Assembly: GCA_028820845.1 (NCBI GenBank)
Contig: JAPPII010000010.1
Location: 15,537 to 79,536 of the forward strand
Origin: Candidatus Poribacteria bacterium
GTDB taxonomy: Bacteria; Poribacteria; WGA-4E; WGA-3G
DNA length: 64,000 nucleotides
Direction of reading: 5' to 3'
Positions 8,754-49,817 of the stretch are shown here, in pieces. The notes beneath the pieces were generated by a model. The model saw only the letters and a list, made by a program, of their open reading frames with translations, did not search any database and was not told where the DNA came from. The translations under genes were made by a program, and so were the position numbers. Each line of letters starts with the position of its first letter. The first letter of the stretch is position 1.

Positions 8754-11700
8754 ATGACGCAATTACTCTCACAACAAACAGAAGCGGCACACAAACCTAT
8801 ACGTACACAATTTCGGCTTGCGATCATACTGTCCCTTCTTTTTTTTCTATGTATAGGTAGCGCGACCGCACGGCTTACTCAAGTCACATCAGAGAGCGGA
8901 ATTACCGTTCAATTCACCTTGCCGGAACTAACTATCTCTGAGGTAGTTCGAGACAGGGTCCGCTATCAAGAGGTCCATTACGACGACAGCCGCTTTACCA
9001 ATGAACCCGGTAATCCCAAAGTTCCAGTCACACGGTTGATGTTAGGTATACCGGCGTCAGTTGAAATCGAAGCAATTGATATTTCTGCGGCTCCAGCTGA
9101 GACACGTACCGGTATTCGTCTCGTGCCGGTCTCTATTTTCGATGTGCAGGAACGCAACTCACAACACGCAGCGACACAACACTGGGTAGAAAGCGGTAGT
9201 GCCTATCAATCGACTGGAAACGCTTCCTATCCGGGATTCCCACTTGCCCGCGTCGTCCGGGAAGGTTACATTCGCAGCCAACGCGTCATTGCGGTGGCAT
9301 TGTATCCTGTGCAGTATCTGCCGAGAACCCGTCAATTGCGCCTGTACTCACACCTTACGGTGAACATCCGGTTTTCCAGTAGCGGTCAGCAGTCAGCGGT
9401 CAGCAGTCGGTCAAGAGGAATTAGTGGCAGTGAAGTGGGACACAATCGCCCCACATTGATAGCCGAATCAGAAGCCTTTGAACGTGCCTTGTCCCATCAA
9501 CTTCTCAATGCTGAGCAGGCGCGTAATTTCAGAGTGCCCCGTCCCGTGATGCCTGCAGCACCGGCACTCATTCCTGATGAGACTTCCGATAGTGTCCGCT
9601 TTAAATTATTCGTCGAAGAAACCGGGGTCTATACTGTAACAGCAGAAGCCCTACAGCAGGATTGGGGGATAGAGCTCGTTGGCGCAGATCCAAGGCAACT
9701 TCGACTCACGCACGAGAGTAGAAATATTCCTATCTACATTAGCGGCGCAGGCGACGGCCGTTTTGATCCAGAAGATGCCATCTTTTTCCTTGGACATAAA
9801 CCGAAAAACCGCTATAGTCGTTGGAATATCTATTGGCTCACGCTTGACAATAGGCGGCGCACCTCTGCGCGGGTCCCACAGGTTACTGTCAGCCCCACAG
9901 ATCCAACAGCGACACAAGTCCCTACCTTCCGCTCTAAACTAACCTTTGAAGAGAATTATCTCACGAATAACCTTGAATTTGTATACACAAACACCGTTTC
10001 TCCCGGTAATAAACATGGGTGGTTTGAAGCATTGGATTTCTGGTACTGGGATGGTATCAAAAATGGAAGCGATGTTGGCGAAATGCGCCTTGAGTTTCCG
10101 CTCTATGATGTTGCAAAAAGTTTCGACCCGCTGCACATTTCCGTCGATTTGCAAGGTGGCACACCGGTATCCCATGAAATCTTAGTCGCTATCAACGGGG
10201 TCCGAATAGAGTTTGCGAAATGGAAACAGCAGGACACGCTCACTGTCCAACGGACTTTACGGGCATGGGATACACTCAAAGATAATAGGAACGGCGAACA
10301 AAATGTCTTGTCCCTTGCCCGTGTTGATGATAACGTTGACGAAGACACAACCCGCTATCCGTATCATGTCTATCTCAACCGTTTTTCTGTTGAGTATACC
10401 CGCCTCTTCCGCGCAGTTTCTGATGAACTGTGGTTCACATCACCTACCCCAGATGAAACTTCACAGACGAAACCTACGGGTGGGCGCAAACTTCAGTATG
10501 AAATTAAGGCGTTTGGCGACCCGGGTGTACATATTTTTGAGACAGATGGCAATGTGCTCACTGCTCGGATGCAAGGGGTTACGGTGGAGACGGACATAGA
10601 AAACCCTAATTCCTATAACGCGCTTTTCCAGATGCTCGACACCCGAAACGCCGAGTTTGTTGCGGTTTCTGATACTGCGTTGCGTCAGCCAGAGCGTATT
10701 GAAATCATCGGACCTACGGATTTAGCCACTGCGAATCACGGTGCCGATTATTTGGTCGTGACACATTCAAAATTCCTATCTGCAGCGGAAAGATTAGCAG
10801 CGTGGCGCGCAACGCCTGGCGGTGGCGGATATCGTACGAGGGTCGTTACAACGGATGAGATCTACAATACATTTGGCGGTGGCGCGGTCAGCCCTAAGGC
10901 AATCAAGGCGTTTCTGACCCACGCTTATCAATCTTGGGCACCACCCGCGCTGTCTTACGTTGTCTTTTTTGGCGATGGAACGTTTGATTTTCGCGGTGTT
11001 GACACAGAAATTCACCTCGAACCCCCCGAACTCGATGGTTACATTCCAACACACTATATCCGAACGGATTCATTTGGTCGAACTGCCGCCGATCACTGGT
11101 ACGCGACGGTTTCAGGACACGATGAATTCACCGATTTCTACATCGGGAGGCTCAGCGTTGAAACTGTCAGCCAATCGGAGACTGTTGTTGATAAAATATT
11201 GGCTTATGAACAGAGTCCACCCAGTGGAGATTGGCGTAGGAAGATTATCTCTGTCGCTGACGATGAAGTTAGTAACTCTGGGGATTTTATCTTCAAGAAG
11301 AGTCTCAACGAAATTGCGAAAGACCACACCCGTTTAGGCTATGAGACCATTGAAGTCTTTCTCGAAGATGTCATCGACGAAGTTGAGGCGCGTCCAGCCG
11401 ATTATGCAAACATCTTGCCCCGCTATGTCGCGAGGGAGAGGATTATCAAGGCACTCGGAGAAGGAGCGGTCTTGGCGCAATACGCTGGCCATGGCGGTAG
11501 GACTGTCTGGACGCACGAGTCAATATTTGACAACGCAGACGTTGAGGAGGTTGAGGAGACGGCAAAGATCCCTTTCATGTTGGTGCTCAGCTGCTATAAT
11601 GGCTATTTTGATAAACCGGGTGAACCCAGCATGGCGGAGAAGTTATTGCGAAAAGAGAGAGGCGGTATCATCGGTATGCTGAGTGCCACACGTCTCACTT

Positions 11701-14700
11701 ATGGCAGTGGAAATGATGCCCTCAATCGGATTATCTTTGACATGCTTTTTAAACGGAACATCCGACAACTCGGTCCCTTGAGTTTTGATTCAAAAGTCGA
11801 ACTTCTGATGACAGAGGGGACAGGGCAGATTGATGTCATGATGGAGTATACACTTTTCGGAGACCCCGCTTTACAAATTGCTATCGCTGATGGTGAGATT
11901 CTGCCTAATATTGAGACGAAAACAGTTGCGCCGGGTGACACACTCAGAGTCGCTCCCGGATACGTTCAGACTGCCACCTACGACGCATTGGGGCGGGTCA
12001 AACGCTTTGCAAGAAATACCACTTTTAATGGCACACTTACCGTAAAGGCATTATTCCCTGGAAAAACAGTCATCGCACAAGGCATCTCAGGTCCCGTTAA
12101 TTACTATACCGGCGATGTAATTGTGACGAAAACCCTGAGCGTTAGCAACGGTGCCTATCCTGCGGTAACTTTCACTGTTCCACAAAACATTGCCAGCGGT
12201 GATGCGCACGTTGAGTACTACGCACAGAGTCCCACAACAATCGCTGTCGGTGGTGATGGATTTACTGTTAATATTCCAAAAATTCTTGATGTTCAGACGG
12301 AATTAGTCGGTGAGGACAAATTCCGTATCTCTGTTCAGGTTTCTGATGAAAAGGAAGCACTGACTTCAGTACTCTTGAGTTGGCGGAACCCCATAAGCCG
12401 ACAGTGGGAGTATGTGACGCTTACGCCAGCACCAACACCTTTGTCAGCAGAGGGATGGTGGACAGTTCCCGAACCCCTTGATGCCCCAATAGATGGTTCC
12501 GTTATCCGATACGATATTCAAGTCACAGACGCAGATGGTAATACGGTTGAAAGTCAGGCGTTACGATATTATCCCTATGTCCATCCGAATCTTGCTGTTG
12601 TAGAGGTCGCCAGAACCGCTGTTATTCGGTACGGCTACAACACTGAAGCGCAGCAGTGGTCCCTCTCAGCAGACGTTCAGGTAGAGGGGGATGAGATACA
12701 AACGCCTGTTGAAGTCGCCTTCTTTTACGGCAATCCCGATGTTGACGACGATACGATTATTGATGATAGTGCCAATCTCCTTGGAACTGCTCGAATTCAA
12801 CCCGGGGATTGGATACAACGTTCGCCGTTAGCGAATTCCGAAAATCCGCGTGGGGAAAAAGACGTTTATGAACCCGATCCGTTGAATACACTGCCAATCG
12901 CAACCGCCGCCCTTCCACTAACGGCGAACTTTCCATTTGCCGGTGGACAACACGAAAACGTTGATAGGCGCGGGCTACCTCTCGGTACACACGATATATT
13001 TGTTTATGTGGACCCAAACTTTGGTGAAACAGATCAATCCGGTAAGGTTCTCGAAAACGAGGAGGACGACAATATTGCCTACCGACAAATCTCTGTTGAC
13101 ATGGGTGTGATAGGCGGAACCTCTTCAAATCAGATTGCCAGTTTGGATCGGAACTGCGTTGTTACTGCGCCACCGGGTGTACTTCAAAATCCAACTGTGC
13201 TTAGGGTTGCTACGCTACCAGCAGGCAGTGGTCAGCAGTCAGCAAGACAACAGACTTCGCTGACCGATGATCGCTATTCTGTCAAGCCTGTCCCACTACC
13301 TGGGAACGCTTACGGTTATGAATTGGCTATCGGAAGTCAGCAGTCAGTCGTAAACGTTTTTAATTCCGCAGGTGAGTTACCAACAGCTGACAGCCAACAG
13401 CCGACAGCCATTTCTCTGACTTCTCCAATAGCGATTGACTTCAGTTTTGATCTTGGCGCACTCGGGACGCAGCTCGCTAAAGAATTGTTAGGAAGTGCGG
13501 AGGAGGTTACTGACGTATCGGATACAGCCGCCACAATTGGCACTGCAGTTGAGTCCCGGGCACGCGAGATAGGTATTTATCAGTGGAGTTCGACGCTCAG
13601 CAACTGGATCCGGCTTCCCTCTCAATTATTGACTGGCACTGCGGGAACGTTGCAGCGGCGGATACAGACTACCGACATAAGTGCAAAAAATATTGGCGAA
13701 GGTGAACTCCGGGACATTCGCATCCATCCAGACGGCGCGCCAACTGGAAAATACGTCCTGCTTTTCACAGGTCCGCAAACCTATCGACTCCTCCGCGCAC
13801 CCTTCACAGAAGAAGCGCAGACGCTTGAAGAATTAGAAGTTGTTGCACCGAGAGAACAACTTGCAGGCTTTAGTACAGACTTCCCCAATTTTAGACATGG
13901 ATTTGATGTTAATGTTGAAATTGATCCCGAAGAACCTTTCAGGTTCGGCGATGTTTGGACATTTAACATCACTGCTCTTGAACAACCCTTTGATACTGAC
14001 CCGGACACCTCTCCACAACAAGAGCTGCGTTGGTATGCATCGGGATTCGGAGATGTCAACCGAGGCACCGGAATTGTTAGTTCCATTGAACTCCCACCGG
14101 ATACCGCTATGCCAGAAGATCGGTGGATTATCCTTTTCCTCACTGACACAGAATTTCAAATTGAGGGAGAGAAAACGGGTATCCTACGGTCTCAATCCGG
14201 TGAAAATGCCCCACGCCGCGGGACAGTCGGGCAGCCGTTTTTCTACGCGCCTTACGGTTTACATTTCCAGATTACACAAAGCACGCGTTCTTTCAAACCG
14301 GGGGACAGGTTTCGGTTTGAAACCCGACCTGTAGGGACCATTAGAGCCACGACGGATCGGCTCGGAAGTGTCACACTTTTATACACTGACGATGCTGTAC
14401 CACCGGACATACAGTTGACTATTGGGAATCAGCAACATTTTGTGCCAGGAGATGCGACGGACGCTGAACCGCTCATCGGAGCGACCCTAACGGATCCAAG
14501 TGGCATCGACTATCTCACCCGTTCATTTTTGTTGGAGCTTGGCAGCGGGCTCTCGTATGAACCGATCAATCCCGAAGCCTATCAGTTAACCTACCATCCC
14601 GGCTCGAATCAGCTTGTTTTAACATATCTGTCTCCTGAACTCGAACCGCGGGAGTATGAGATTCGACTCACAGCCAGCGATGTACACGGAAACACTGACA

Positions 14701-15026
14701 CAGAGAGCATTACATTCCGAGTTCACGATACTTTGCAGTTGCTATCGTTTCTGAACTATCCGAATCCGTTCCCGCGTAAAACGACGCTTACCTGCGAACT
14801 AACAGCACCTGCTGACTCGTTTGTTGTGAAAATCTACACACTGAGCGGACGACTTATCCGTGAACTTTCGATACCGGCGACCCCTGGGTTCCTTATGGTG
14901 GAGTGGGATGGTAGGGATGCTGATGGTATTGAGGTAGCGAACGGCGTTTACTACGCAAAACTCCAAATTAAGCGAGAGGGTGAAAAAGACATCACCGAAA
15001 TACTTAAAATGATGAAACTTCGTTGA
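8754..15026 (+). CDS. Giant secreted C25 (gingipain-like) cysteine peptidase with T9SS-type C-terminal sorting domain
   Basis: 2090-aa ORF. C25 core (ADYLVVTH...YVVFFGDGTFDF, catalytic-type YAGHGG and LVLSCYNGYF). C-terminal LNYPNPFPRKTTL...IYTLSGRLIREL...WDGRDADGIEVANGVYYAKL sorting domain. Confidence 0.85.
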   Translation: MTQLLSQQTEAAHKPIRTQFRLAIILSLLFFLCIGSATARLTQVTSESGITVQFTLPELTISEVVRDRVRYQEVHYDDSRFTNEPGNPKVPVTRLMLGIPASVEIEAIDISAAPAETRTGIRLVPVSIFDVQERNSQHAATQHWVESGSAYQSTGNASYPGFPLARVVREGYIRSQRVIAVALYPVQYLPRTRQLRLYSHLTVNIRFSSSGQQSAVSSRSRGISGSEVGHNRPTLIAESEAFERALSHQLLNAEQARNFRVPRPVMPAAPALIPDETSDSVRFKLFVEETGVYTVTAEALQQDWGIELVGADPRQLRLTHESRNIPIYISGAGDGRFDPEDAIFFLGHKPKNRYSRWNIYWLTLDNRRRTSARVPQVTVSPTDPTATQVPTFRSKLTFEENYLTNNLEFVYTNTVSPGNKHGWFEALDFWYWDGIKNGSDVGEMRLEFPLYDVAKSFDPLHISVDLQGGTPVSHEILVAINGVRIEFAKWKQQDTLTVQRTLRAWDTLKDNRNGEQNVLSLARVDDNVDEDTTRYPYHVYLNRFSVEYTRLFRAVSDELWFTSPTPDETSQTKPTGGRKLQYEIKAFGDPGVHIFETDGNVLTARMQGVTVETDIENPNSYNALFQMLDTRNAEFVAVSDTALRQPERIEIIGPTDLATANHGADYLVVTHSKFLSAAERLAAWRATPGGGGYRTRVVTTDEIYNTFGGGAVSPKAIKAFLTHAYQSWAPPALSYVVFFGDGTFDFRGVDTEIHLEPPELDGYIPTHYIRTDSFGRTAADHWYATVSGHDEFTDFYIGRLSVETVSQSETVVDKILAYEQSPPSGDWRRKIISVADDEVSNSGDFIFKKSLNEIAKDHTRLGYETIEVFLEDVIDEVEARPADYANILPRYVARERIIKALGEGAVLAQYAGHGGRTVWTHESIFDNADVEEVEETAKIPFMLVLSCYNGYFDKPGEPSMAEKLLRKERGGIIGMLSATRLTYGSGNDALNRIIFDMLFKRNIRQLGPLSFDSKVELLMTEGTGQIDVMMEYTLFGDPALQIAIADGEILPNIETKTVAPGDTLRVAPGYVQTATYDALGRVKRFARNTTFNGTLTVKALFPGKTVIAQGISGPVNYYTGDVIVTKTLSVSNGAYPAVTFTVPQNIASGDAHVEYYAQSPTTIAVGGDGFTVNIPKILDVQTELVGEDKFRISVQVSDEKEALTSVLLSWRNPISRQWEYVTLTPAPTPLSAEGWWTVPEPLDAPIDGSVIRYDIQVTDADGNTVESQALRYYPYVHPNLAVVEVARTAVIRYGYNTEAQQWSLSADVQVEGDEIQTPVEVAFFYGNPDVDDDTIIDDSANLLGTARIQPGDWIQRSPLANSENPRGEKDVYEPDPLNTLPIATAALPLTANFPFAGGQHENVDRRGLPLGTHDIFVYVDPNFGETDQSGKVLENEEDDNIAYRQISVDMGVIGGTSSNQIASLDRNCVVTAPPGVLQNPTVLRVATLPAGSGQQSARQQTSLTDDRYSVKPVPLPGNAYGYELAIGSQQSVVNVFNSAGELPTADSQQPTAISLTSPIAIDFSFDLGALGTQLAKELLGSAEEVTDVSDTAATIGTAVESRAREIGIYQWSSTLSNWIRLPSQLLTGTAGTLQRRIQTTDISAKNIGEGELRDIRIHPDGAPTGKYVLLFTGPQTYRLLRAPFTEEAQTLEELEVVAPREQLAGFSTDFPNFRHGFDVNVEIDPEEPFRFGDVWTFNITALEQPFDTDPDTSPQQELRWYASGFGDVNRGTGIVSSIELPPDTAMPEDRWIILFLTDTEFQIEGEKTGILRSQSGENAPRRGTVGQPFFYAPYGLHFQITQSTRSFKPGDRFRFETRPVGTIRATTDRLGSVTLLYTDDAVPPDIQLTIGNQQHFVPGDATDAEPLIGATLTDPSGIDYLTRSFLLELGSGLSYEPINPEAYQLTYHPGSNQLVLTYLSPELEPREYEIRLTASDVHGNTDTESITFRVHDTLQLLSFLNYPNPFPRKTTLTCELTAPADSFVVKIYTLSGRLIRELSIPATPGFLMVEWDGRDADGIEVANGVYYAKLQIKREGEKDITEILKMMKLR

Positions 15027-15051: not shown

Positions 15052-16071
15052 ATGAAACATTGTAAGAAAAGTATCTTCTACTATATTACGTCTGTAATTA
15101 TGTTCTGCATCGGACTTGCATCCGCAGACGCGAAATACACGGCTGACTTCTTGACGCTGGGTGTCGGTGCCCGAGTTCTTGGAATGGGGGGTGCAGGCAC
15201 TGCACTGAGTGCTGACGCTTACGCCCCGTACTGGAATTCTGCTGGACTTGGACAACTTACCCGATACGAGGTCAGTTTCATGCATTCCACACTCAACGGG
15301 GAAGATGCCTACGATTTCGTCAGTTACATACACCCTCTTAAAAACCGAGGCGCAATCGGTGTGAGCTGGCTGCGCGTCGGTGTTGACGACATTCTGATCA
15401 CTGGTTTGCCAGTTGCCAGCCGTCCTATCGGAGCGACGAACCGACCTGAAGTTATAGGCACTTTCAACAATACGGATAACGCTTTCCTTTTTGCCTCGGG
15501 ATGGCGACTTCCGTCTCTCTACGGTATGAATCTTCGGGTCGGCGGCACGCTCAAACTGCTCTACATGAGCGGCTATCGGAGCACGAACGCCATTGGTGGT
15601 GGTGCGGACATCGGTTTCATTGCGACGACAAACCCAGAAAAGCCGCATCAACTGACGCTTGGTCTACAAGCGAGCGATGCCTTTCAGACGAAGCTTTATT
15701 GGAACACACCGCCGCCGTCAGCAGATCAGACCTCCCATACTGAAACGATACCGCCCCATCTCAAAATTGGCATTGCAACAACACATAGGCTTAGCGTTTT
15801 CCGAAGTGTGCTGATTCTTGCCTTAGATACCTACATCAAAGACGGTGTTGAACTGCACGCAGGTGCGGAATGGACGCTATTTGACCTGCTCGCCTTACGG
15901 ATTGGGCTTGCGGAACGAAGTGGCAGCCTTGAGAGTGTCCGCCAATTGACAGCAGGTGCAGGATTGAACCTCCGATTCGTCACAGGTGCAGGGGCAGGAT
16001 TGGACTATGCGTTTGCGAACCATCCCGCATTAGGCGGTAGCCATCGTATGTCTCTTCGGATACGGTTTTAG
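15052..16071 (+). CDS. PorV/PorQ-family outer-membrane beta-barrel protein
   Basis: Signal peptide followed by FLTLGVGARVLGMGGAGTALSADAYAPYWNSAGLG, the hallmark N-terminal motif of this family. Alternating beta-strand pattern and aromatic C-terminus (RIRF). Confidence 0.7.
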   Translation: MKHCKKSIFYYITSVIMFCIGLASADAKYTADFLTLGVGARVLGMGGAGTALSADAYAPYWNSAGLGQLTRYEVSFMHSTLNGEDAYDFVSYIHPLKNRGAIGVSWLRVGVDDILITGLPVASRPIGATNRPEVIGTFNNTDNAFLFASGWRLPSLYGMNLRVGGTLKLLYMSGYRSTNAIGGGADIGFIATTNPEKPHQLTLGLQASDAFQTKLYWNTPPPSADQTSHTETIPPHLKIGIATTHRLSVFRSVLILALDTYIKDGVELHAGAEWTLFDLLALRIGLAERSGSLESVRQLTAGAGLNLRFVTGAGAGLDYAFANHPALGGSHRMSLRIRF

Positions 16072-16091
16072 GTGAGGCGAAGGAAAAAGTT

Positions 16092-16940
16092 ATGTTTAAG
16101 TATTTTCTATCTACTTTCGTTTTGAGTGTTGTAATGATCTGTAATGTTTATGCACATGGCGGTGGACTTGACGCCGAGGGTTGACATAACGACAACATTA
16201 ATGGCGGTCGCCATTGCCATAAAAACGTCAATCCTGATCTGGTTGAAGATAATCTGGTTGACGATAATCCGGTTGAAGATAATCCCGTTGAAAATAATCC
16301 CGCTGAAGATAATCCCGTTGAAGATAATCCCGTTGAAAATAATCCCGTTGAAAATAATCCCGCTGAAGATAATCCCGTTGAAGATAATCCCGTTGAAAAT
16401 AATCCCGCTGAAGATAATTCACAACCTGTAGTTCCTCAATTAGATCTACGCTCATATTTATGTCACAAGGTTAAAGTTATTGATGTTTATGATGGAGATA
16501 CAATCACCATAGATATAAACAAAAGACATGTTAGAATTAGACTGGCAGGAATAGATGCTCCCGAATTAAACGCCAAAATGGAAAGAGAAAGAAACGCGGC
16601 GATAGAAGGCCGGGATCATTTAGAAAGGCTTATATTGGACAAAGAGGTTATCGTGTTGTTTGAAGAAAGTGATACGACACTTGATGGTATACATCGCGGT
16701 AATTTTGGGCGGCCAATCGCTTACATATTTATATTGGACAATGAAGCACTGCCAAAGGTGAAAACTTTTGTTAATCGAAATATGATAGATAACGGCAAAG
16801 CGATAAGGTCTAAATACAAGATAGATTTTCCTGTGCTATTTACCAAAGATTTTGATTTGTCCGATATACCCGTAAGTGTTTGGCTGAGTGTAAATGCAAC
16901 AAAGCGAGCAACGACAACTTGGGCAGAATTAAAAAGGTGA
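16092..16940 (+). CDS. Secreted staphylococcal-nuclease-like (thermonuclease) protein with N-terminal His/Cys motif. The reading frame is interrupted by one in-frame TGA at 16182-16184 (selenocysteine candidate or pseudogene).
   Basis: The ATG at 16092 is in the same frame as ORF 16578-16940. Signal peptide MFKYFLSTFVLSVVMICNVYA and HGGGLDAEG lie before the TGA. After it the frame stays open for 131 codons with no ATG/GTG/TTG and encodes HNDNINGGRHCH, DNPVE repeats, and the SNase motifs VIDVYDGDTITI and RLAGIDAPE. Confidence 0.7.
16200..16215 (+). other. SECIS-like hairpin candidate downstream of the in-frame TGA
   Basis: AATGGC-GGTC-GCCATT: a 6-bp stem with a GGUC apical loop. The first loop G lies 21 nt after the TGA. 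Confidence 0.3.
16236..16418 (+). repeat. 15-bp tandem repeat (about 11 full units) encoding a (D/N)NP(V/A)E pentapeptide linker
   Basis: gataatcccgttgaa / aataatcccgctgaa units read directly. In frame with the nuclease gene. Confidence 0.95.
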
Positions 16941-17311: not shown

Positions 17312-19081
17312 ATGTATAAGAGACTTTTTTGTTTGATATGTGCTTTTGTAGTGTTAACCCTCACATCAACGCAGTACGCAATAGCTGATTATCGTATTAC
17401 AAACGGCAGCGCGACAGAACCGGCATTTGTGGTATACTCCAGATGGTTACCTGCCAATGGAAATTGGCCAGAAGGCTGGCGGACAAATGGGTATTATCGG
17501 ATTGAACCCGGTGGCACTCGAAACTTGTCTATCCCACAAGGGAATGCATGGGTGTATATCTATGTGCAGCGTGGTGGCAGCGAGATTAAACCAACTGACC
17601 ACGCGACAAGAGACAGCGCACCGTTTTGGATACATCCCTCTGAAGCATTTACAGTCGTGGAAACGACCGAGGGGGATTTCCTGAAAAGCAATCGCGGTAG
17701 ATGGAGTTTAGAGACAGCGACTTTGTATGAATACCGGAACGGCGGCTCACACACCATTCCTGATGAACCGCGTCTCCCAGACCTGACTGCACGACAAATC
17801 TACAATCAGGCAATGAATTCTGTAGTGTGGATTTATAATGTGTATGAAGAAGCAGAAGGTAGTGGTGTATTAATTGATCGAGAACGGAAACTCGTCGTTA
17901 CCAACCAACATGTTACAAACCTATCTAATTGGGTCTTTGTCTATTCCCCAGTGCCAGATCCGAATAGCGAGAATGGAGAATTGATTGGTGATAGAGACTA
18001 CTATGTAGAGAATTATGAAGCACTTGAGAGGACTGGTTATGCCACATGGGGAAGAGTGATTGCTGAAAATGCAAACAGAGATTTGGCGATACTTCAACTT
18101 CATTCACTCCCCGGGATAGCGCGCCAAATTAATCACAATTTGGGCGCGGATCTCTCTCGGAAAGTGAGAAGGAAAGATCCCGTTCATATCCTCGGAAACC
18201 CAGGGAAACTTGATCTATGGCGTTGGACGTTAGGACTTTTCCAATCAGACACTGGAGACTGGTTGCACATCGATGCGGATATATTTGGTGGCAACAGCGG
18301 GGGGCCTGTGCTAAACGAGCAGGGTAAGTTAATCGGGATTGTCGCAAGATCGGACGAGCGTACCACAGCCTCTGCAGTTCCAGTAAGATATGTCAAAGTT
18401 TTGTTGGATACAGTGGGTCCAAAACATACATTCAGGATTATAAACGACGCAGGGCTTACTGTCCCTTACCAAATCAAGTGGTCGAGTAACCACAATTGGG
18501 AGCAACAATCTCTTAATCAAGGAGCGAGTTTGTATTATTGGTGGAATGGTGAAACCGTAGCTTCGGGTTATCCTAAAATCCGTTTTGATGAGATCGTTAA
18601 TGATGGCCGGTTTACTGAGCGTATCTATAGGTTGGATACCTTCCTACGGTACTTTGGGAATAACTACAAGAATCACGTTTCTGTTGATGATGCCTATACC
18701 TACACATTTTCTTACAACCAATGGACGAGAAAAATCAATCTTTCTCGTGATACACTCGCAGCCCCATCCTTAGTCAAAGCGATTCCAAAGGAAACAGTCT
18801 TGCTAACCAACTATCCCAACCCGTTCAATCCCGAAACTTGGATACCCTATCAACTTGCCAAACCTGCCGAGGTGACGGTCACCATCTATGCAGCAGATGG
18901 GAAGTTAGTTCGGAGGCTGGCGTTAGGACATCAACCTGCAGGCGTGTATCAGAGCAAAAGCCGTGCGGCGTATTGGGATGGCAAAAATGATGTCGGGGAG
19001 TCTGTGGCGAGTGGTTTGTATTTCTATACTCTGAAAGCAGGTGAATTTACTGCCACGCGGAAGATGCTGATAAGGAAATAG
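17312..19081 (+). CDS. Secreted trypsin-like (S1C-type) serine protease with T9SS-type C-terminal sorting domain
   Basis: Signal peptide. Triad contexts TNQHV, RDLAILQL, GGNSGGPVL. C-terminal LTNYPNPFNPETWIPYQL...IYAADGKLVRRL...WDGKNDVGESVASGLYFYTL. Confidence 0.85.
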   Translation: MYKRLFCLICAFVVLTLTSTQYAIADYRITNGSATEPAFVVYSRWLPANGNWPEGWRTNGYYRIEPGGTRNLSIPQGNAWVYIYVQRGGSEIKPTDHATRDSAPFWIHPSEAFTVVETTEGDFLKSNRGRWSLETATLYEYRNGGSHTIPDEPRLPDLTARQIYNQAMNSVVWIYNVYEEAEGSGVLIDRERKLVVTNQHVTNLSNWVFVYSPVPDPNSENGELIGDRDYYVENYEALERTGYATWGRVIAENANRDLAILQLHSLPGIARQINHNLGADLSRKVRRKDPVHILGNPGKLDLWRWTLGLFQSDTGDWLHIDADIFGGNSGGPVLNEQGKLIGIVARSDERTTASAVPVRYVKVLLDTVGPKHTFRIINDAGLTVPYQIKWSSNHNWEQQSLNQGASLYYWWNGETVASGYPKIRFDEIVNDGRFTERIYRLDTFLRYFGNNYKNHVSVDDAYTYTFSYNQWTRKINLSRDTLAAPSLVKAIPKETVLLTNYPNPFNPETWIPYQLAKPAEVTVTIYAADGKLVRRLALGHQPAGVYQSKSRAAYWDGKNDVGESVASGLYFYTLKAGEFTATRKMLIRK

Positions 19082-19212: not shown

Positions 19213-20319
19213 ATGGCAGACTTCAATGAAATCCTTGCTTTTTTCATGGACTCCCTCGGACAGTTCGCAGATAGAAGTGCGAAATGGCTGTTATCAAACC
19301 GAGAGAACCTTCGTGGGCTCCTGCAAATTATCGGTAAAGACCTTGTTGAGTCGCTTGACTTCAGCAGAATGCGGCGCGTCAATACGACCTTTATCGCCGA
19401 TAACCTGCGCGAACAAGAGTCGGATCTGGTCTTTCTCTTACCCTTCCGAGATACTGATGAAACAGAGGTGATGATCTATATCCTCATTGAACATCAGTCC
19501 ACGGTAGACCCGGTGATGGGTTTTCGGATGTTATCGTATATGTACCACATCTGGGATGACCAACGGCAGCAGTGGGTCGCTGAGGGTGTCCCGAAGAGCC
19601 AATGGCGGTTTCGTCCGATCATCCCTGTTGTATTTTATACAGGCAAAGCAGAATGGCACTCCGTGATTTCAATGGAGGCGTTGATGGATGTGCCGGAGCC
19701 CTTGCGTCGATTTGTTCCGAGGTTTGAGACGTTGTTTCTGGGTATCCAAGGTGAACCTGATGCGAACTTACTGCAGGCTGAGGGACCGTTTGGGTGGCTG
19801 CTGACGGTTCTCAAACGTGCGGACACGCCGGATCGTTCTGTGTTTGTATCGGTGTTAGAGACGTTAGGGGATCATCTGGGGGGTCTGACGGAGTCGGAGC
19901 GTGCTGCGTGGGTGCAAGCGGTCTACTATCTTCACTTACTGGTTTTCTACAAGCGTTCTGTTGGGGAGCGTGCGGATTTAGATCGGGTCGTTGCTGAACA
20001 CCAAAGGACGTTGACCCTTTCTCAAGCGGAGGTAACTCTCATGCAAACGATGGCTGAACACTATTTGCAACAAGGCATAGAACAAGGTATAGAACAAGGT
20101 ATAGAACAAGGTATTGAAGAAGGTATTGAACAAGGGGCGCGTCGGACGAGTATCGAAAGCACACTTGCTATCCTCAACACTCGCTTCCCAGATGCTGACG
20201 TTCAGACCCTCACGCCTGCACTCGAAGCCATTGCGGACCTCAACCGACTTAAGCAACTCAATATCGAGGCATCTGTCGTAGGCTCCTTTCACGCTTTCCA
20301 AGAACAGATAGATGCATAA
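19213..20319 (+). CDS. Rpn-family recombination-promoting nuclease / putative transposase (PD-(D/E)XK) with DUF4351-like tail
   Basis: DLVFLLPF...EVMIYILIEHQSTVDPVMGFRMLSYM core. C-terminal EQGI x5 repeat followed by ARRTSIESTLAILNTRFP. Confidence 0.75.
   Translation: MADFNEILAFFMDSLGQFADRSAKWLLSNRENLRGLLQIIGKDLVESLDFSRMRRVNTTFIADNLREQESDLVFLLPFRDTDETEVMIYILIEHQSTVDPVMGFRMLSYMYHIWDDQRQQWVAEGVPKSQWRFRPIIPVVFYTGKAEWHSVISMEALMDVPEPLRRFVPRFETLFLGIQGEPDANLLQAEGPFGWLLTVLKRADTPDRSVFVSVLETLGDHLGGLTESERAAWVQAVYYLHLLVFYKRSVGERADLDRVVAEHQRTLTLSQAEVTLMQTMAEHYLQQGIEQGIEQGIEQGIEEGIEQGARRTSIESTLAILNTRFPDADVQTLTPALEAIADLNRLKQLNIEASVVGSFHAFQEQIDA
20071..20135 (+). repeat. 12-bp tandem repeat (caaggtatagaa x5) encoding EQGI repeats in the Rpn-like gene
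   Basis: Read directly. Confidence 0.9.
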
Positions 20320-46823: not shown

Positions 46824-48350
46824 ATGCATACACTTTGGCTAATTATCCAACGAGAATTCGTCTCAAATGTGTTGACATCCCGATTTATGATTGGGTTTAT
46901 CGTGTGTCTGCTTTCAACTGCCGTTGCTGTTTTCGTCCAAGTGGACGATTACGAAAAACGTTTGGCGGGATATAACACCGCGATACGGGAGGCACAAGAG
47001 GAAACTCGGACATGGGAGCTCTATGTTGACATCAAGCCGAAAGCGCACCGAAAACCAAACCTGCTCGGAATATTTAACGTAGGGACAGAGAACTTCGGGG
47101 CAAATACGGTCACCGTTGAACTCTCAAAACCCATCTTTGAATTCATTACTTTCCCTATCTGGTTGCCCCCGACGCAAAAGCGGGGTTCAGACAACCCCTT
47201 CCTTGCCATGTTCCTGGCTGTTGATGTGGTTTTCATCTTCAAAATCGTTCTCAGTGCTTTGGCGATTCTGTTCGCTTACAACACAATTTCGGGTGAGAGA
47301 GAGGATGGCACGTTGAAACTTGTGTTATCCAATGCGGTACCGAGAGATGTAGTCGTGCTGGGGAAATACCTTGGTGGAATGTTATCGCTGTTTCCTATCA
47401 TCTTGGTGAGTTTACTCGTGGTCCTGTTAATATCTTTCGCTTCACCAGTTACCGCTTTTGATGGAAACGACATCGCACATATCATCTTAATATTTGGTGT
47501 TTCGTTGTTGTACGTGTCAACGTGGTATCTTTTAGGGTTTGTCCTATCCGTTTGGACGAAGGAAGCGGCGACAACGTTAATTCTTTCGATGTTTATTTGG
47601 GTGATTCTGACGAGCGTTCATTCAAATGTAGTGACGTTTGCAGTGGAGAAGTTCCCGCCACATCCATCTAAATCCGAACAGTCGGTCCTTCAGCCCGCCT
47701 TTGATGTCTGGGATCAGTTCAGAAAGGAACGGGATGCCTACGTTAAACAGCGGGGCTATGATGATTTGAAAGAGTCAATTACTTGGGAACCTGAGACATC
47801 TTCAACGGGAACGAGGTCTGGTTCTATGTCTGGGGGCTATTTCTTGACAGAGAGTTATAGCGTCAACAGTGTTAGTAAAGCGGATACCTCTATCTTCCAG
47901 GAGATTTTAGGCTATCAGGAACAACTTCGGGTTACATACGCGAACAAAGCGGAGGAAATTCTCAAAGAACCTGCGGAAATTCGAGAGCGAAATGTGAGAT
48001 TCGCAGACGCGCTCTCGCGTATTTCCTTCGCGGATGTTTATAATTTCGCTGTTGGTGCGATAGCGGGGACCGATCGGCAGCGTTATAACGATTTTATTGC
48101 CGACTCCAGAGCCTATAAACGCGAGATTGTTGAGTATTTGAAGGATAAGAAGGCGTTTTCGTCGCGAGCATGGTTTTCCACGGATAAGGGTGCTGCGGAA
48201 TTGACAGATTTACCGGTTTTCAAGCATCGGCGGCTTTCCCTTTCTGAAAGTTTTTCACAGGCATCAATGGATGTTTTGATATTGTTGGCGTGGAATATTG
48301 TTCTGTTCATGACGGCTTATGTATCCTTCCTACGGTATGATATGAGTTGA
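46824..48350 (+). CDS. ABC-2-type permease-like polytopic protein with long C-terminal soluble region (paralog 1 of 4)
   Basis: ISGEREDGTLKLVLSNAVPR motif. N-terminal helix, loop, TM bundle, ~200-aa soluble region, final TM. Confidence 0.75.
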   Translation: MHTLWLIIQREFVSNVLTSRFMIGFIVCLLSTAVAVFVQVDDYEKRLAGYNTAIREAQEETRTWELYVDIKPKAHRKPNLLGIFNVGTENFGANTVTVELSKPIFEFITFPIWLPPTQKRGSDNPFLAMFLAVDVVFIFKIVLSALAILFAYNTISGEREDGTLKLVLSNAVPRDVVVLGKYLGGMLSLFPIILVSLLVVLLISFASPVTAFDGNDIAHIILIFGVSLLYVSTWYLLGFVLSVWTKEAATTLILSMFIWVILTSVHSNVVTFAVEKFPPHPSKSEQSVLQPAFDVWDQFRKERDAYVKQRGYDDLKESITWEPETSSTGTRSGSMSGGYFLTESYSVNSVSKADTSIFQEILGYQEQLRVTYANKAEEILKEPAEIRERNVRFADALSRISFADVYNFAVGAIAGTDRQRYNDFIADSRAYKREIVEYLKDKKAFSSRAWFSTDKGAAELTDLPVFKHRRLSLSESFSQASMDVLILLAWNIVLFMTAYVSFLRYDMS

Positions 48351-48365
48351 AAGGAGGAGAGACGA

Positions 48366-49817
48366 ATGATTCTACACATTGCGACGAAAGAGATACATCA
48401 CAATCTCACGACCCTCCGATTTGCCTTGATGATTATTCTTTTGCCTCTCCTGTTTTTGGCGAACGCGTTGATATACAGTTTAGGCGGTTACGGCTATACC
48501 ACGCAGATTAATACCTATAATCGACAGGTGGAACAGAAGAGAAAGCATATTAAAAATCACGCGGATACGAGTTTGGCGGAGTTAGCACTCAGGGGCCCTG
48601 GAGAGATTCCGAAGTTTCCGAGCCCAATGACTTTCTGTGCGGATGGAACTGATGAGCTCGTCCCGCGTTTTGTCAAGATGACCGGCGAAGGATCGTCCAG
48701 CCGCAGCGGTCAGAATCAAACTGAGGATTACGGATGGACACCGCCGTGGACACTGGAGTATCCTTTGCAGAGTAAAGTCGGGGGCGCGATGCAGCGGATT
48801 AAGATTGACTGGGTCTTCATCGGGGGCCTCATGAGTTTCTTTGCGATTTTATTCACTTTTGATGCGATCGCTGGGGAGAGAGCCCGCGGCACGCTGAGCC
48901 TCATAATGTCTAATACTGTCTCGCGCAGCCAAGTGTTATTAGGTAAATACCTCGGAGCGTTTTTGACCCTTATGGTTCCACTTGTAATTGGTATCCTGAT
49001 GAACCTGTTGTTTATCCTTATTTCCCGGAATATTCCTTTTGCGTCGAGTGAGTGGTTGCGAGTTTTGGGGATGGTCGGGTTGTTTGCATTACACGTCTCT
49101 GTTTTCATCTTTCTCGGGTTGTTTTTCTCAAGTCGGGTTTCAAACGCAATCACAAGTTTAGTATGGCTCTTATTGACTTGGGTCTGCTTGGCGTTCGTAT
49201 TTCCGAGTCTGCTTGGGACTTTTGTTGGCAATCTAAATCCGATTCCCTCCGTTGACGAAGTGTCAATGCAGAAAGATGTGCAGTTAAAACAGTTGAGAGA
49301 TGAATACCGACCTTTTGGTGGGTCAGAATCTAAGTTAAGGAAGGCAGCAGCCATCGAGAATCCCGAAGCAACGCGACGCTGGGCGACCTACCTCACCAAA
49401 GAGATAGAGACGAAAACTCGATTTAATGATGGACAAATCGACCAGCAGTTTAAGCAGGTGCAGCTCGCCCGAGATATTACTCAAATCTCACCGATAACGA
49501 CCTTCCAGTATGCAATGGAAGGACTTGCGAATACCGGCATCGTCAGTTATATGAATTTCGTCAAACAGGCGCGCCGTTATCGACAGACGTTCATAGATTT
49601 CATCGAAACCGAAGATCAGAGCGATCCGGAGAGTCTACACATCTATCCTGTAAAAGAGGGGTTGTCGCAGAAGCCGGTGAATCCAGCGGCGGTGCCGGTG
49701 TTCACAGAGCATATCTCGTATCGGAGTGTGTTATCTCAGGTCGGTTTGTTGGTGTTGTTTAATCTGCTATTTTTTATTATGGCGCAGGTTTCTTTTTTGA
49801 TGAGTGAGGTAAAATAG
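48366..49817 (+). CDS. ABC-2-type permease-like polytopic protein (paralog 2 of 4)
   Basis: IAGERARGTLSLIMSNTVSR motif. Same topology as 46824-48350. Confidence 0.75.
   Translation: MILHIATKEIHHNLTTLRFALMIILLPLLFLANALIYSLGGYGYTTQINTYNRQVEQKRKHIKNHADTSLAELALRGPGEIPKFPSPMTFCADGTDELVPRFVKMTGEGSSSRSGQNQTEDYGWTPPWTLEYPLQSKVGGAMQRIKIDWVFIGGLMSFFAILFTFDAIAGERARGTLSLIMSNTVSRSQVLLGKYLGAFLTLMVPLVIGILMNLLFILISRNIPFASSEWLRVLGMVGLFALHVSVFIFLGLFFSSRVSNAITSLVWLLLTWVCLAFVFPSLLGTFVGNLNPIPSVDEVSMQKDVQLKQLRDEYRPFGGSESKLRKAAAIENPEATRRWATYLTKEIETKTRFNDGQIDQQFKQVQLARDITQISPITTFQYAMEGLANTGIVSYMNFVKQARRYRQTFIDFIETEDQSDPESLHIYPVKEGLSQKPVNPAAVPVFTEHISYRSVLSQVGLLVLFNLLFFIMAQVSFLMSEVK

Follow-up and report, generated by a model that had tools for sequence, protein, structure and literature searches.

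Bacterial selenoprotein genes with an intragenic selenocysteine insertion sequence (SECIS), of which E. coli fdhF is the prototype, carry an in-frame UGA at a Cys-homologous codon and a stem-loop in the coding sequence directly downstream of it. According to Zhang & Gladyshev (summary in PMC13188914), the consensus of a bacterial SECIS (bSECIS) comprises an apical loop of 3-9 nucleotides (nt) whose first two positions include a G, an upper stem of 4-16 base pairs (bp), a distance of 16-37 nt from the UGA to the apical loop and a free energy of -7.5 kcal/mol or lower. A canonical SECIS is found in only 87.4% of the entries of BSepDB. Here we describe a gene in a 64,000-nt stretch of contig JAPPII010000010.1 from a Candidatus Poribacteria bacterium; the whole stretch is referred to as the window. 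The gene (16092-16940) encodes a signal peptide, a small His-rich module of the YHYH_alt type and a staphylococcal-nuclease-like (SNase) domain, and a single TGA interrupts the module. Very probably this UGA is a selenocysteine (Sec) codon and the gene is an intact one of a Poribacteria-type bacterium, coding for a secreted SNase-like protein with Sec in its YHYH_alt module.

Proteins of the YHYH_alt and YHYH type (NF033223; PF14240) share, immediately behind the signal peptide, the pattern H-x-G-x4-5-G-[C/G]-H-x(5-22)-H-[C/Y]-H, and in P0037, P0040 and P0043 the module is fused to a thermonuclease as in the window gene. Unlike these proteins the window gene has UGA at the [C/G] position, and its HxH is preceded by Arg (RHCH) instead of Tyr. 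Among predicted selenoproteins, the SaoB/SaoX substrate-binding proteins, a YHS-domain selenoprotein, a CopZ-like family and MbdU resemble the present case in that Sec belongs to a small metal-associated or exported module and not to a classical redox enzyme (Table 1 of PMC13188914). There is no sequence relationship to any of them, none is fused to a nuclease, and the motifs of those predicted selenoproteins are CU, GxU and UxxC as opposed to G-U-H...H-C-H here.

Translation from ATG 16092 in frame +1 yielded MFKYFLSTFVLSVVMICNVYA-HGGGLDAEG-TGA-HNDNINGGRHCH, followed by the linker, the nuclease motifs DGDTI and RLAGIDAPE, and a second TGA at 16938-16940. The first in-frame ATG, GTG or TTG 3' of the inner TGA (16182-16184) is codon 132 (ATG 16578), which lies past the catalytic DGDT motif. 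A first-pass annotation had described the same frame, the absence of any start codon between the TGA and 16578, and a hairpin AATGGC-GGTC-GCCATT 15 nt past the TGA; translation and direct inspection agreed with it throughout and placed the hairpin at 16200-16215. Initiation upstream of the TGA is supported by Shine-Dalgarno-like sequences, which precede the signal-peptide ATG in the window and, as GGAG or AGGA-type motifs, the equivalent ATG in most homologues.

A protein search with the read-through product returned homologues of two kinds. Three were full-length (P0001, P0002 and P0014) and read ...DGCHNDN... at the site; P0001 and P0002 aligned over 100% of the window gene. The many others were short, with 161-187 amino acids spanning only the C-terminal 60% or so. 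The DNA 5' of each short homologue, read in frame, encoded a signal peptide, HxGRLAxDG, TGA and HNDxxNGGRHCH. Thus the short proteins are artefacts of gene calling, because the upstream DNA encodes the signal peptide and the module up to an in-frame TGA. All TGA-form genes examined (P0003-P0013 and P0016-P0018) are annotated publicly as N-terminally truncated, signal-less SNase proteins starting from an arbitrary internal ATG, GTG or TTG, a systematic mis-annotation that annotation pipelines could correct. Scans of JGI metagenomes by SNase alignment gave distant generic SNases only (at most about 51% identity, over short segments, mostly 30-40%), and a motif scan found no locus with the motif; IMG/VR likewise gave distant generic SNases only, its loci being judged by identity alone.

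TGA occupied the identical codon in 12 independent genes: that of the window, two in L121 and one each in L001, L002, L003, L122, L124, L125, L126, L127 and L210. L123 is an independent Logan assembly of the L122 sequence and was not counted separately. The TGA forms came from different samples and assemblers (long-read, metaSPAdes/MEGAHIT-style short-read and Logan), and L001 is located on a 5.55-Mb contig labelled circular (ERZ25068633 ctg160213). In a neighbour-joining tree they fell into at least three deep clades, with amino-acid identities down to about 37%. The closest genome records were metagenome-assembled genomes of Candidatus Poribacteria that code for Cys at the site, with TGC in two paralogues of OZ241845.1 (L004 and L005) and TGT in L006; L119/L120 also had TGC. 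L004 and L005 were nested within the main TGA clade. With these four close Cys-form loci the gene forms a Sec/Cys pair, and in the wider YHYH_alt family the equivalent residue was Cys in 44 of 49 proteins, so that the alignment bears out the Cys-type position that had been assigned to the TGA from the window alone.

The codons around the TGA evolve as coding sequence. Along the nine codons 5' of it the amino acids were kept (H, G/P, G, R, L, A, A, D, G) and 60% of the synonymous pairwise comparisons differed; the five codons 3' of it showed the same pattern with a synonymous difference of 45%. These comparisons indicate purifying selection on both sides of the TGA. The signal peptides diverged strongly in sequence and always kept the reading frame. 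Ten of 11 genes had their first in-frame start no less than 22 codons 3' of the TGA, beyond the invariant HNDxxNGGRHCH, and in the window gene and L121b the first possible start was past the catalytic DGDT. Because these ten genes have no start codon before the end of the motif, HNDxxNGGRHCH cannot be reached by re-initiation. Taken together, the conserved coding of the flanks, the in-frame signal peptides and the late downstream starts imply that both sides of the TGA are made as one polypeptide.

Consensus folding of the 11 aligned TGA forms with RNAalifold produced a single element that begins 15 nt after the UGA and has a stem of 6 bp and a loop of 4 nt. This was the very hairpin of the first-pass annotation, which had also judged its GGUC loop and its spacing to be in the SECIS range and had cautioned that the stem is short. 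Loop and spacing fitted and the caution was justified, the stem having 6 bp and the hairpin alone a free energy weaker than the usual bSECIS value. The element was fully paired in 11 of 11 aligned genes (66 of 66 cells), and the stem varied by three one-sided changes to G.U, once GGC to GGU and twice CGC to CGU. All 12 genes had the 6-bp stem, the 4-nt loop and a distance of 21 nt from UGA to loop. The loop was GGUC in ten of them, which is the loop sequence of the fdhF minimal SECIS, and GGGC in two. Thus the hairpin conforms to bSECIS in loop size, stem length, loop G and spacing, with a borderline free energy. It also shares with other intragenic-SECIS genes the existence of Cys-form homologues some of which have lost the structure: L006 and L120, two distant Cys forms, no longer have the hairpin.

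Because the hairpin overlaps the conserved peptide N-G-G-R-H-C, its conservation was tested at synonymous sites. The pairwise synonymous difference was 0.13 in the four stem codons as against 0.60, 0.45 and 0.47 in the flanking codon groups, a roughly fourfold reduction. The stem Asn was always AAU and the stem His always CAU, while neighbouring Asn and His codons were mixed; the stem Arg was always CGY, although the main Arg codon of the family is AGA. Under the family's own codon usage the probability that NGGRHC forms the hairpin is 0.043 per lineage, and it was formed in 12 of 12 genes and at least three clades. The data argue that the hairpin is selected at synonymous sites. If it serves as a SECIS, the 16-nt GGUC hairpin is among the smallest candidates in bacteria and would be of use for refining SECIS models.

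A longer, 8-bp hairpin, AUGGCGGU-CGCC-AUUGCCAU, was the minimum-free-energy (MFE) structure in four genes. It is impossible in genes with the codon pair TGT-CAC and was rejected as a conserved element.

Several observations speak against a Sec codon. The hairpin lies within a conserved peptide, and there was no compensatory double substitution in its stem among the 11 aligned genes. Unlike the usual bSECIS it has a stem of only 6 bp in the window and no conserved lower stem, and on its own it reaches -6.2 kcal/mol there and -3.5 to -6.2 kcal/mol across the genes, weaker than the threshold of -7.5 kcal/mol; the UGA plus 57 nt (60 nt, local) gave MFE values of -7.3 to -12.4 kcal/mol with structures that differed among genes. 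Nor is it exclusive to the TGA forms, since the TGC paralogues L004 and L005 have it intact, which fits a fossil SECIS after a recent switch from Sec to Cys. Rfam gave nothing at gathering thresholds across the whole window, and around the site only a chance match to a small RNA (E 2.5). No match to E. coli SelA, SelB or SelD was obtained by tblastn in the window and 15 related loci, and ARAGORN found no tRNA-Sec in the window and 13 related loci; these searches covered about 64 kb and short flanks, a share of each genome too small to be informative. At the level of the phylum, and in favour of Sec, Sec-type group 4 [NiFeSe] hydrogenases have been reported from Poribacteria metagenome-assembled genomes (PMC13582414). 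In a study of sponge symbionts with Poribacteria among its bins, SelA and SelB occur together in most bins, which belong to various phyla (PMC5649159). A scan of the window for other open reading frames (ORFs) joined by an in-frame TGA returned off-frame noise and one tandem-gene pair, and no second selenoprotein candidate. Finally, Sec in an accessory module of a nuclease is without precedent in the 119 families and subfamilies of a 2026 catalogue of prokaryotic selenoproteins (PMC13188914).

The simplest explanation of one sequence alone would be a fresh pseudogene or a sequencing or assembly error that turned TGC, TGT or GGA into TGA, as the first-pass annotation had considered, and two relatives do carry frameshifts, L210 in its nuclease domain and L120 in a poly-C run. 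Twelve independent occurrences at the same codon in different samples, assemblers and clades refute this explanation; 11 of the 12 genes have no other disruption and both flanks are under purifying selection, so that its probability is negligible. Practically the same holds for a genome-wide reassignment of TGA to Trp (code 4) or Gly (code 25), for which it may be said that Gly is the second-best residue at the site in the YHYH_alt profile (35.4 bits). TGA terminates 8 of the 37 long ORFs (at least 250 codons) in the window, and TGA closes the window gene and five TGA-form homologues at a position taken by TAA or TAG in other homologues. Because TGA is thus an ordinary terminator both in the ORFs of the window and in the nuclease gene itself, reassignment is excluded, as had been argued from the window before; moreover, the related genomes are Poribacteria of 4.6-5.5 Mb, not lineages known for reassigned codes. 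We concluded from the comparison that the TGA is most likely a conserved, context-specific recoding site.

Two further explanations accept the conservation of the TGA and assign it another role. The UGA may be recoded, via SelB and the hairpin or by near-cognate suppression, with a residue other than Sec, for example Cys inserted by a tRNA-ReC (SelC*)-type tRNA, or Trp or Cys by leaky read-through. The UGA was followed immediately by C in 12 of 12 genes, which is a weak termination context, and no Sec machinery was found in the window or the related loci searched. In addition, tRNA-ReC decodes a SECIS-associated UGA as Cys and is found in some Sec-type genomes (PMC13582414). Yet Cys is directly encodable, and true Sec/Cys pairs show just such a retention of a costly UGA and hairpin, here by at least three deep clades; Trp at the site scores 31.8 bits in the NF033223 profile compared to 37.3 bits for Cys, and the use of Sec has been reported in the phylum (PMC13582414). 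Insertion of another residue therefore seems unlikely to us. We consider it very unlikely that the UGA is a conserved regulatory terminator, where a 30-residue leader is the usual product, rare read-through supplies the nuclease and throttles a potentially toxic enzyme, and the hairpin acts as a read-through or pausing element. The persistence of the hairpin in the TGC forms L004 and L005, which may point to a role other than that of a SECIS, its weakness for a SECIS and the frequent location of the genes in mobile or defence-like neighbourhoods are compatible with such a stop. It leaves unexplained why the stop takes the exact Cys-homologous position of a 25-residue domain in every clade and why that Cys covaries with the Cys of H-C-H. 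Furthermore, GGUC loop, spacing and stem fit the SelB-type SECIS model, and the product of read-through would still depend on a functional residue at a site that elsewhere is Cys.

Thus we favor Sec as the residue inserted at the UGA, because the Sec/Cys pair, the occurrence of UGA across clades, the coding conservation on both flanks and a GGUC stem-loop selected at synonymous sites together make up a Sec signature. In the mechanism we propose, translation would start at ATG 16092. At UGA 16182 the hairpin, while itself coding for N-G-G-R-H-C, would recruit SelB.GTP.Sec-tRNA(Sec), and Sec would be inserted in place of termination. A hairpin of this kind is missing at the second UGA (16938), where translation would end in the ordinary way. 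Export and cleavage of the signal peptide would then yield a mature protein H-G-G-G-L-D-A-E-G-U-H-...-R-H-C-H.

We regard the gene as representing a putative new selenoprotein family with a known mechanism, recognised here by sequence comparison. A family of YHYH_alt plus SNase is absent from the 119 catalogued families and subfamilies, which have no nuclease, SNase, YHYH or NF033223 entry (PMC13188914). No nuclease or YHYH selenoprotein is mentioned in the main text of the papers on BSepDB and deep-Sep or of the 2022 review, NCBIfam release 20 has no dedicated selenoprotein model for this protein, and in the full-text literature nothing was found that links YHYH or thermonuclease with selenoprotein. 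The family would be of an unusual type: the protein would be an exported nuclease, not a thioredoxin-like or molybdopterin enzyme, and its Sec, nine residues away from the mature N-terminus as predicted, would belong to a very small His-rich module.

The module was identified by NCBIfam NF033223 'YHYH_alt' (cutoff 30 bits), which with Cys at the TGA position gave 32.8 bits for the full-length protein and 37.3 bits for a 40-residue excerpt. Substitution of the residue in the excerpt showed that Cys was best, followed by Gly, and that W, S, R, L and X scored 29.7-31.9 bits. Pfam PF14240 gave no match at E<=10, whether the residue at the TGA position was Cys or Gly. The YHYH-type metal-binding motif that had been suspected in front of the nuclease was thus found in its YHYH_alt version and not as PF14240. 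The tight clade was small (4 clusters below 1e-30 in a library-wide HMMER search), and the architecture signal peptide-YHYH_alt(-SNase) was widespread. A hydrophobic N-terminus and an AxA-type site immediately 5' of the first His were present in 49 of 49 YHYH_alt proteins examined (e.g. P0036-P0167). Because the first His always directly follows this signal-peptidase site, the mature protein probably starts with His.

Across the same 49 proteins the residue equivalent to the TGA covaried with the middle residue of the final H-x-H (C/C 44, G/Y 3, G/F 1, G/C 1). The covariation suggests that the two Cys, here Sec and the Cys of H-C-H, are most likely in contact. Searches of the PDB by sequence with the full-length Cys form and the 30-residue module gave no match; hence there is no solved YHYH structure in which to place the Sec. 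A His3/Asp Zn site has been predicted for YHYH domains by Iyer et al. (PMC7824862). The Sec may pair with the Cys of H-C-H in a selenylsulfide, or both may be joint Se/S ligands by the predicted His/Asp metal site. As a tentative and rather doubtful extension, the Sec could have a function of its own, as metal ligand or redox centre of a site resembling a histidine brace, and not be a passive structural substitute for Cys. Such a site would consist of the mature N-terminal His, Asp8, His11, His20/His22, Sec10 and Cys21. If this were true, the function of the 'enigmatic' YHYH module would be catalysis or the sensing of metal, it would be the first case of a selenoenzyme module joined to an extracellular hydrolase of nucleic acids, and Poribacteria would invest selenium in secreted digestive or defence enzymes. 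Sec normally marks a chemically critical Cys. In the uncharacterised YHYH/YHYH_alt domain it would point to the pair [C/G]-H / H-[C/Y]-H as the functional heart and provide a handle for biochemistry.

The C-terminal part matched Pfam SNase (PF00565) with 27.2 bits at a cutoff of 21. An AlphaFold2 model of the C-terminal 173 residues had a predicted local distance difference test score (pLDDT) of 85, and the top PDB matches of the model in Foldseek were those of S. aureus nuclease (E 2e-7, template modelling score 0.63-0.68). Like secreted S. aureus Nuc the domain has the OB-fold, and the residues of Nuc for Ca2+ binding and catalysis (D19/D21, R35, D40, E43 and R87) have aligned counterparts in its DGDT, R-x4-D-x-P-E and GR. 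It differs from Nuc by an identity of about 25%, by Ala instead of T41, by an additional C-terminal extension of about 45 residues ending in TTWAELKR and by the N-terminal module with the proposed Sec and the linker. The protein is predicted to be a secreted Ca2+-type staphylococcal-nuclease-like enzyme. Because the fold and the equivalents of the catalytic residues are present, the modelled domain looks active, and the protein presumably degrades extracellular nucleic acid.

The features of the gene and its neighbours are collected in the table. Secreted hydrolases and a transposase adjoin the gene in the window. Homologous loci are often located next to integrases, DNA methylases, Mrr/TIR genes, Rep3 or more YHYH-SNase paralogues.

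Table. Positions in the window of the nuclease gene, its elements and neighbouring genes.
Feature	Position	Strand	Description and basis
Complete gene	16092..16940	+	282 codons including one in-frame TGA, plus terminator TGA; translation
Shine-Dalgarno-like AAGGA	16080..16084	+	7 nt 5' of ATG 16092; direct reading
Signal peptide MFKYFLSTFVLSVVMICNVYA	16092..16154	+	predicted cleavage VYA|H; site inferred, without dedicated predictor
YHYH_alt His-rich module HGGGLDAEG-U-HNDNINGGRHCH	16155..16220	+	22 residues; match to NCBIfam NF033223
In-frame TGA, proposed Sec codon	16182..16184	+	aligned with Cys in homologues; TGA in 12 independent genes
SECIS-like hairpin AAUGGC-GGUC-GCCAUU (stem-loop-stem)	16200..16215	+	15 nt 3' of TGA; 21 nt from UGA to apical loop
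Tandem-repeat linker	16242..16418	+	15 nt x 11.8 copies, encodes [VA]E[DN]NP; Tandem Repeats Finder, 90% matches, no indels
SNase/OB-fold domain and C-terminal extension ending ...TTWAELKR	16461..16937	+	Pfam PF00565; model and Foldseek
Genuine terminator TGA of the same gene	16938..16940	+	homologues end at the same ...WAELK[RM] with TAA, TAG or TGA
C25 gingipain-like peptidase	8754-15026		2090 amino acids, FlgD_ig tail
UPF0164 protein	15052-16071
Trypsin-like peptidase	17312-19081		Por_Secre_tail/FlgD_ig C-terminus (type IX secretion system-type tail)
YhgA-like transposase	19213-20319

The acidic [VA]E[DN]NP linker that joins the YHYH_alt module to the nuclease domain is peculiar to the window copy and looks like a recent repeat expansion; the homologues have short Pro-rich linkers.

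The two TGA genes of L121 (1173-1919 and 2785-3546) are tandem paralogues on one contig, both with TGA and hairpin. In the upstream paralogue the SNase domain has diverged and a dockerin repeat is present at the C-terminus; therefore the proposed Sec module is combined with differing C-terminal architectures. In L003 (motifs at about 1350, 3680 and 4470), L125 (1992-2798) and L126 (3580-3987) non-Sec YHYH-type genes adjoin the TGA-form gene. They have GGH...YHYH, in one case GCH...YHCH, and several are fused to SNase domains, so these loci appear to be local arrays of paralogous secreted nucleases.

The TGA form of L210 (3600-4560) has an intact TGA and hairpin and two frameshifts in the nuclease domain. 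It is part of a low-coverage long-read contig, with genes for Rep3_N and a DNA methylase as neighbours. Either indels of the assembly account for the frameshifts or the copy is decaying on a plasmid-like element. The Cys form of L119/L120 (2760-3549) has RHWH in place of RHCH, no hairpin and a frameshift in a run of 10 C. The sequence was the same in two independent assemblies; around it, close to the end of a 272-kb contig, the DNA is phage-like, with many small ORFs, RlaP and tRNA-Leu. Phase variation or a homopolymer error may account for the frameshift.

The tandem-gene pair from the scan of the window consists of same-frame ORFs at 46824-48350 and 48366-49817 (508 and 483 amino acids), which are only a TGA and 5 codons apart. 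Because an ATG follows the TGA, they were judged to be tandem genes and not a case of recoding.

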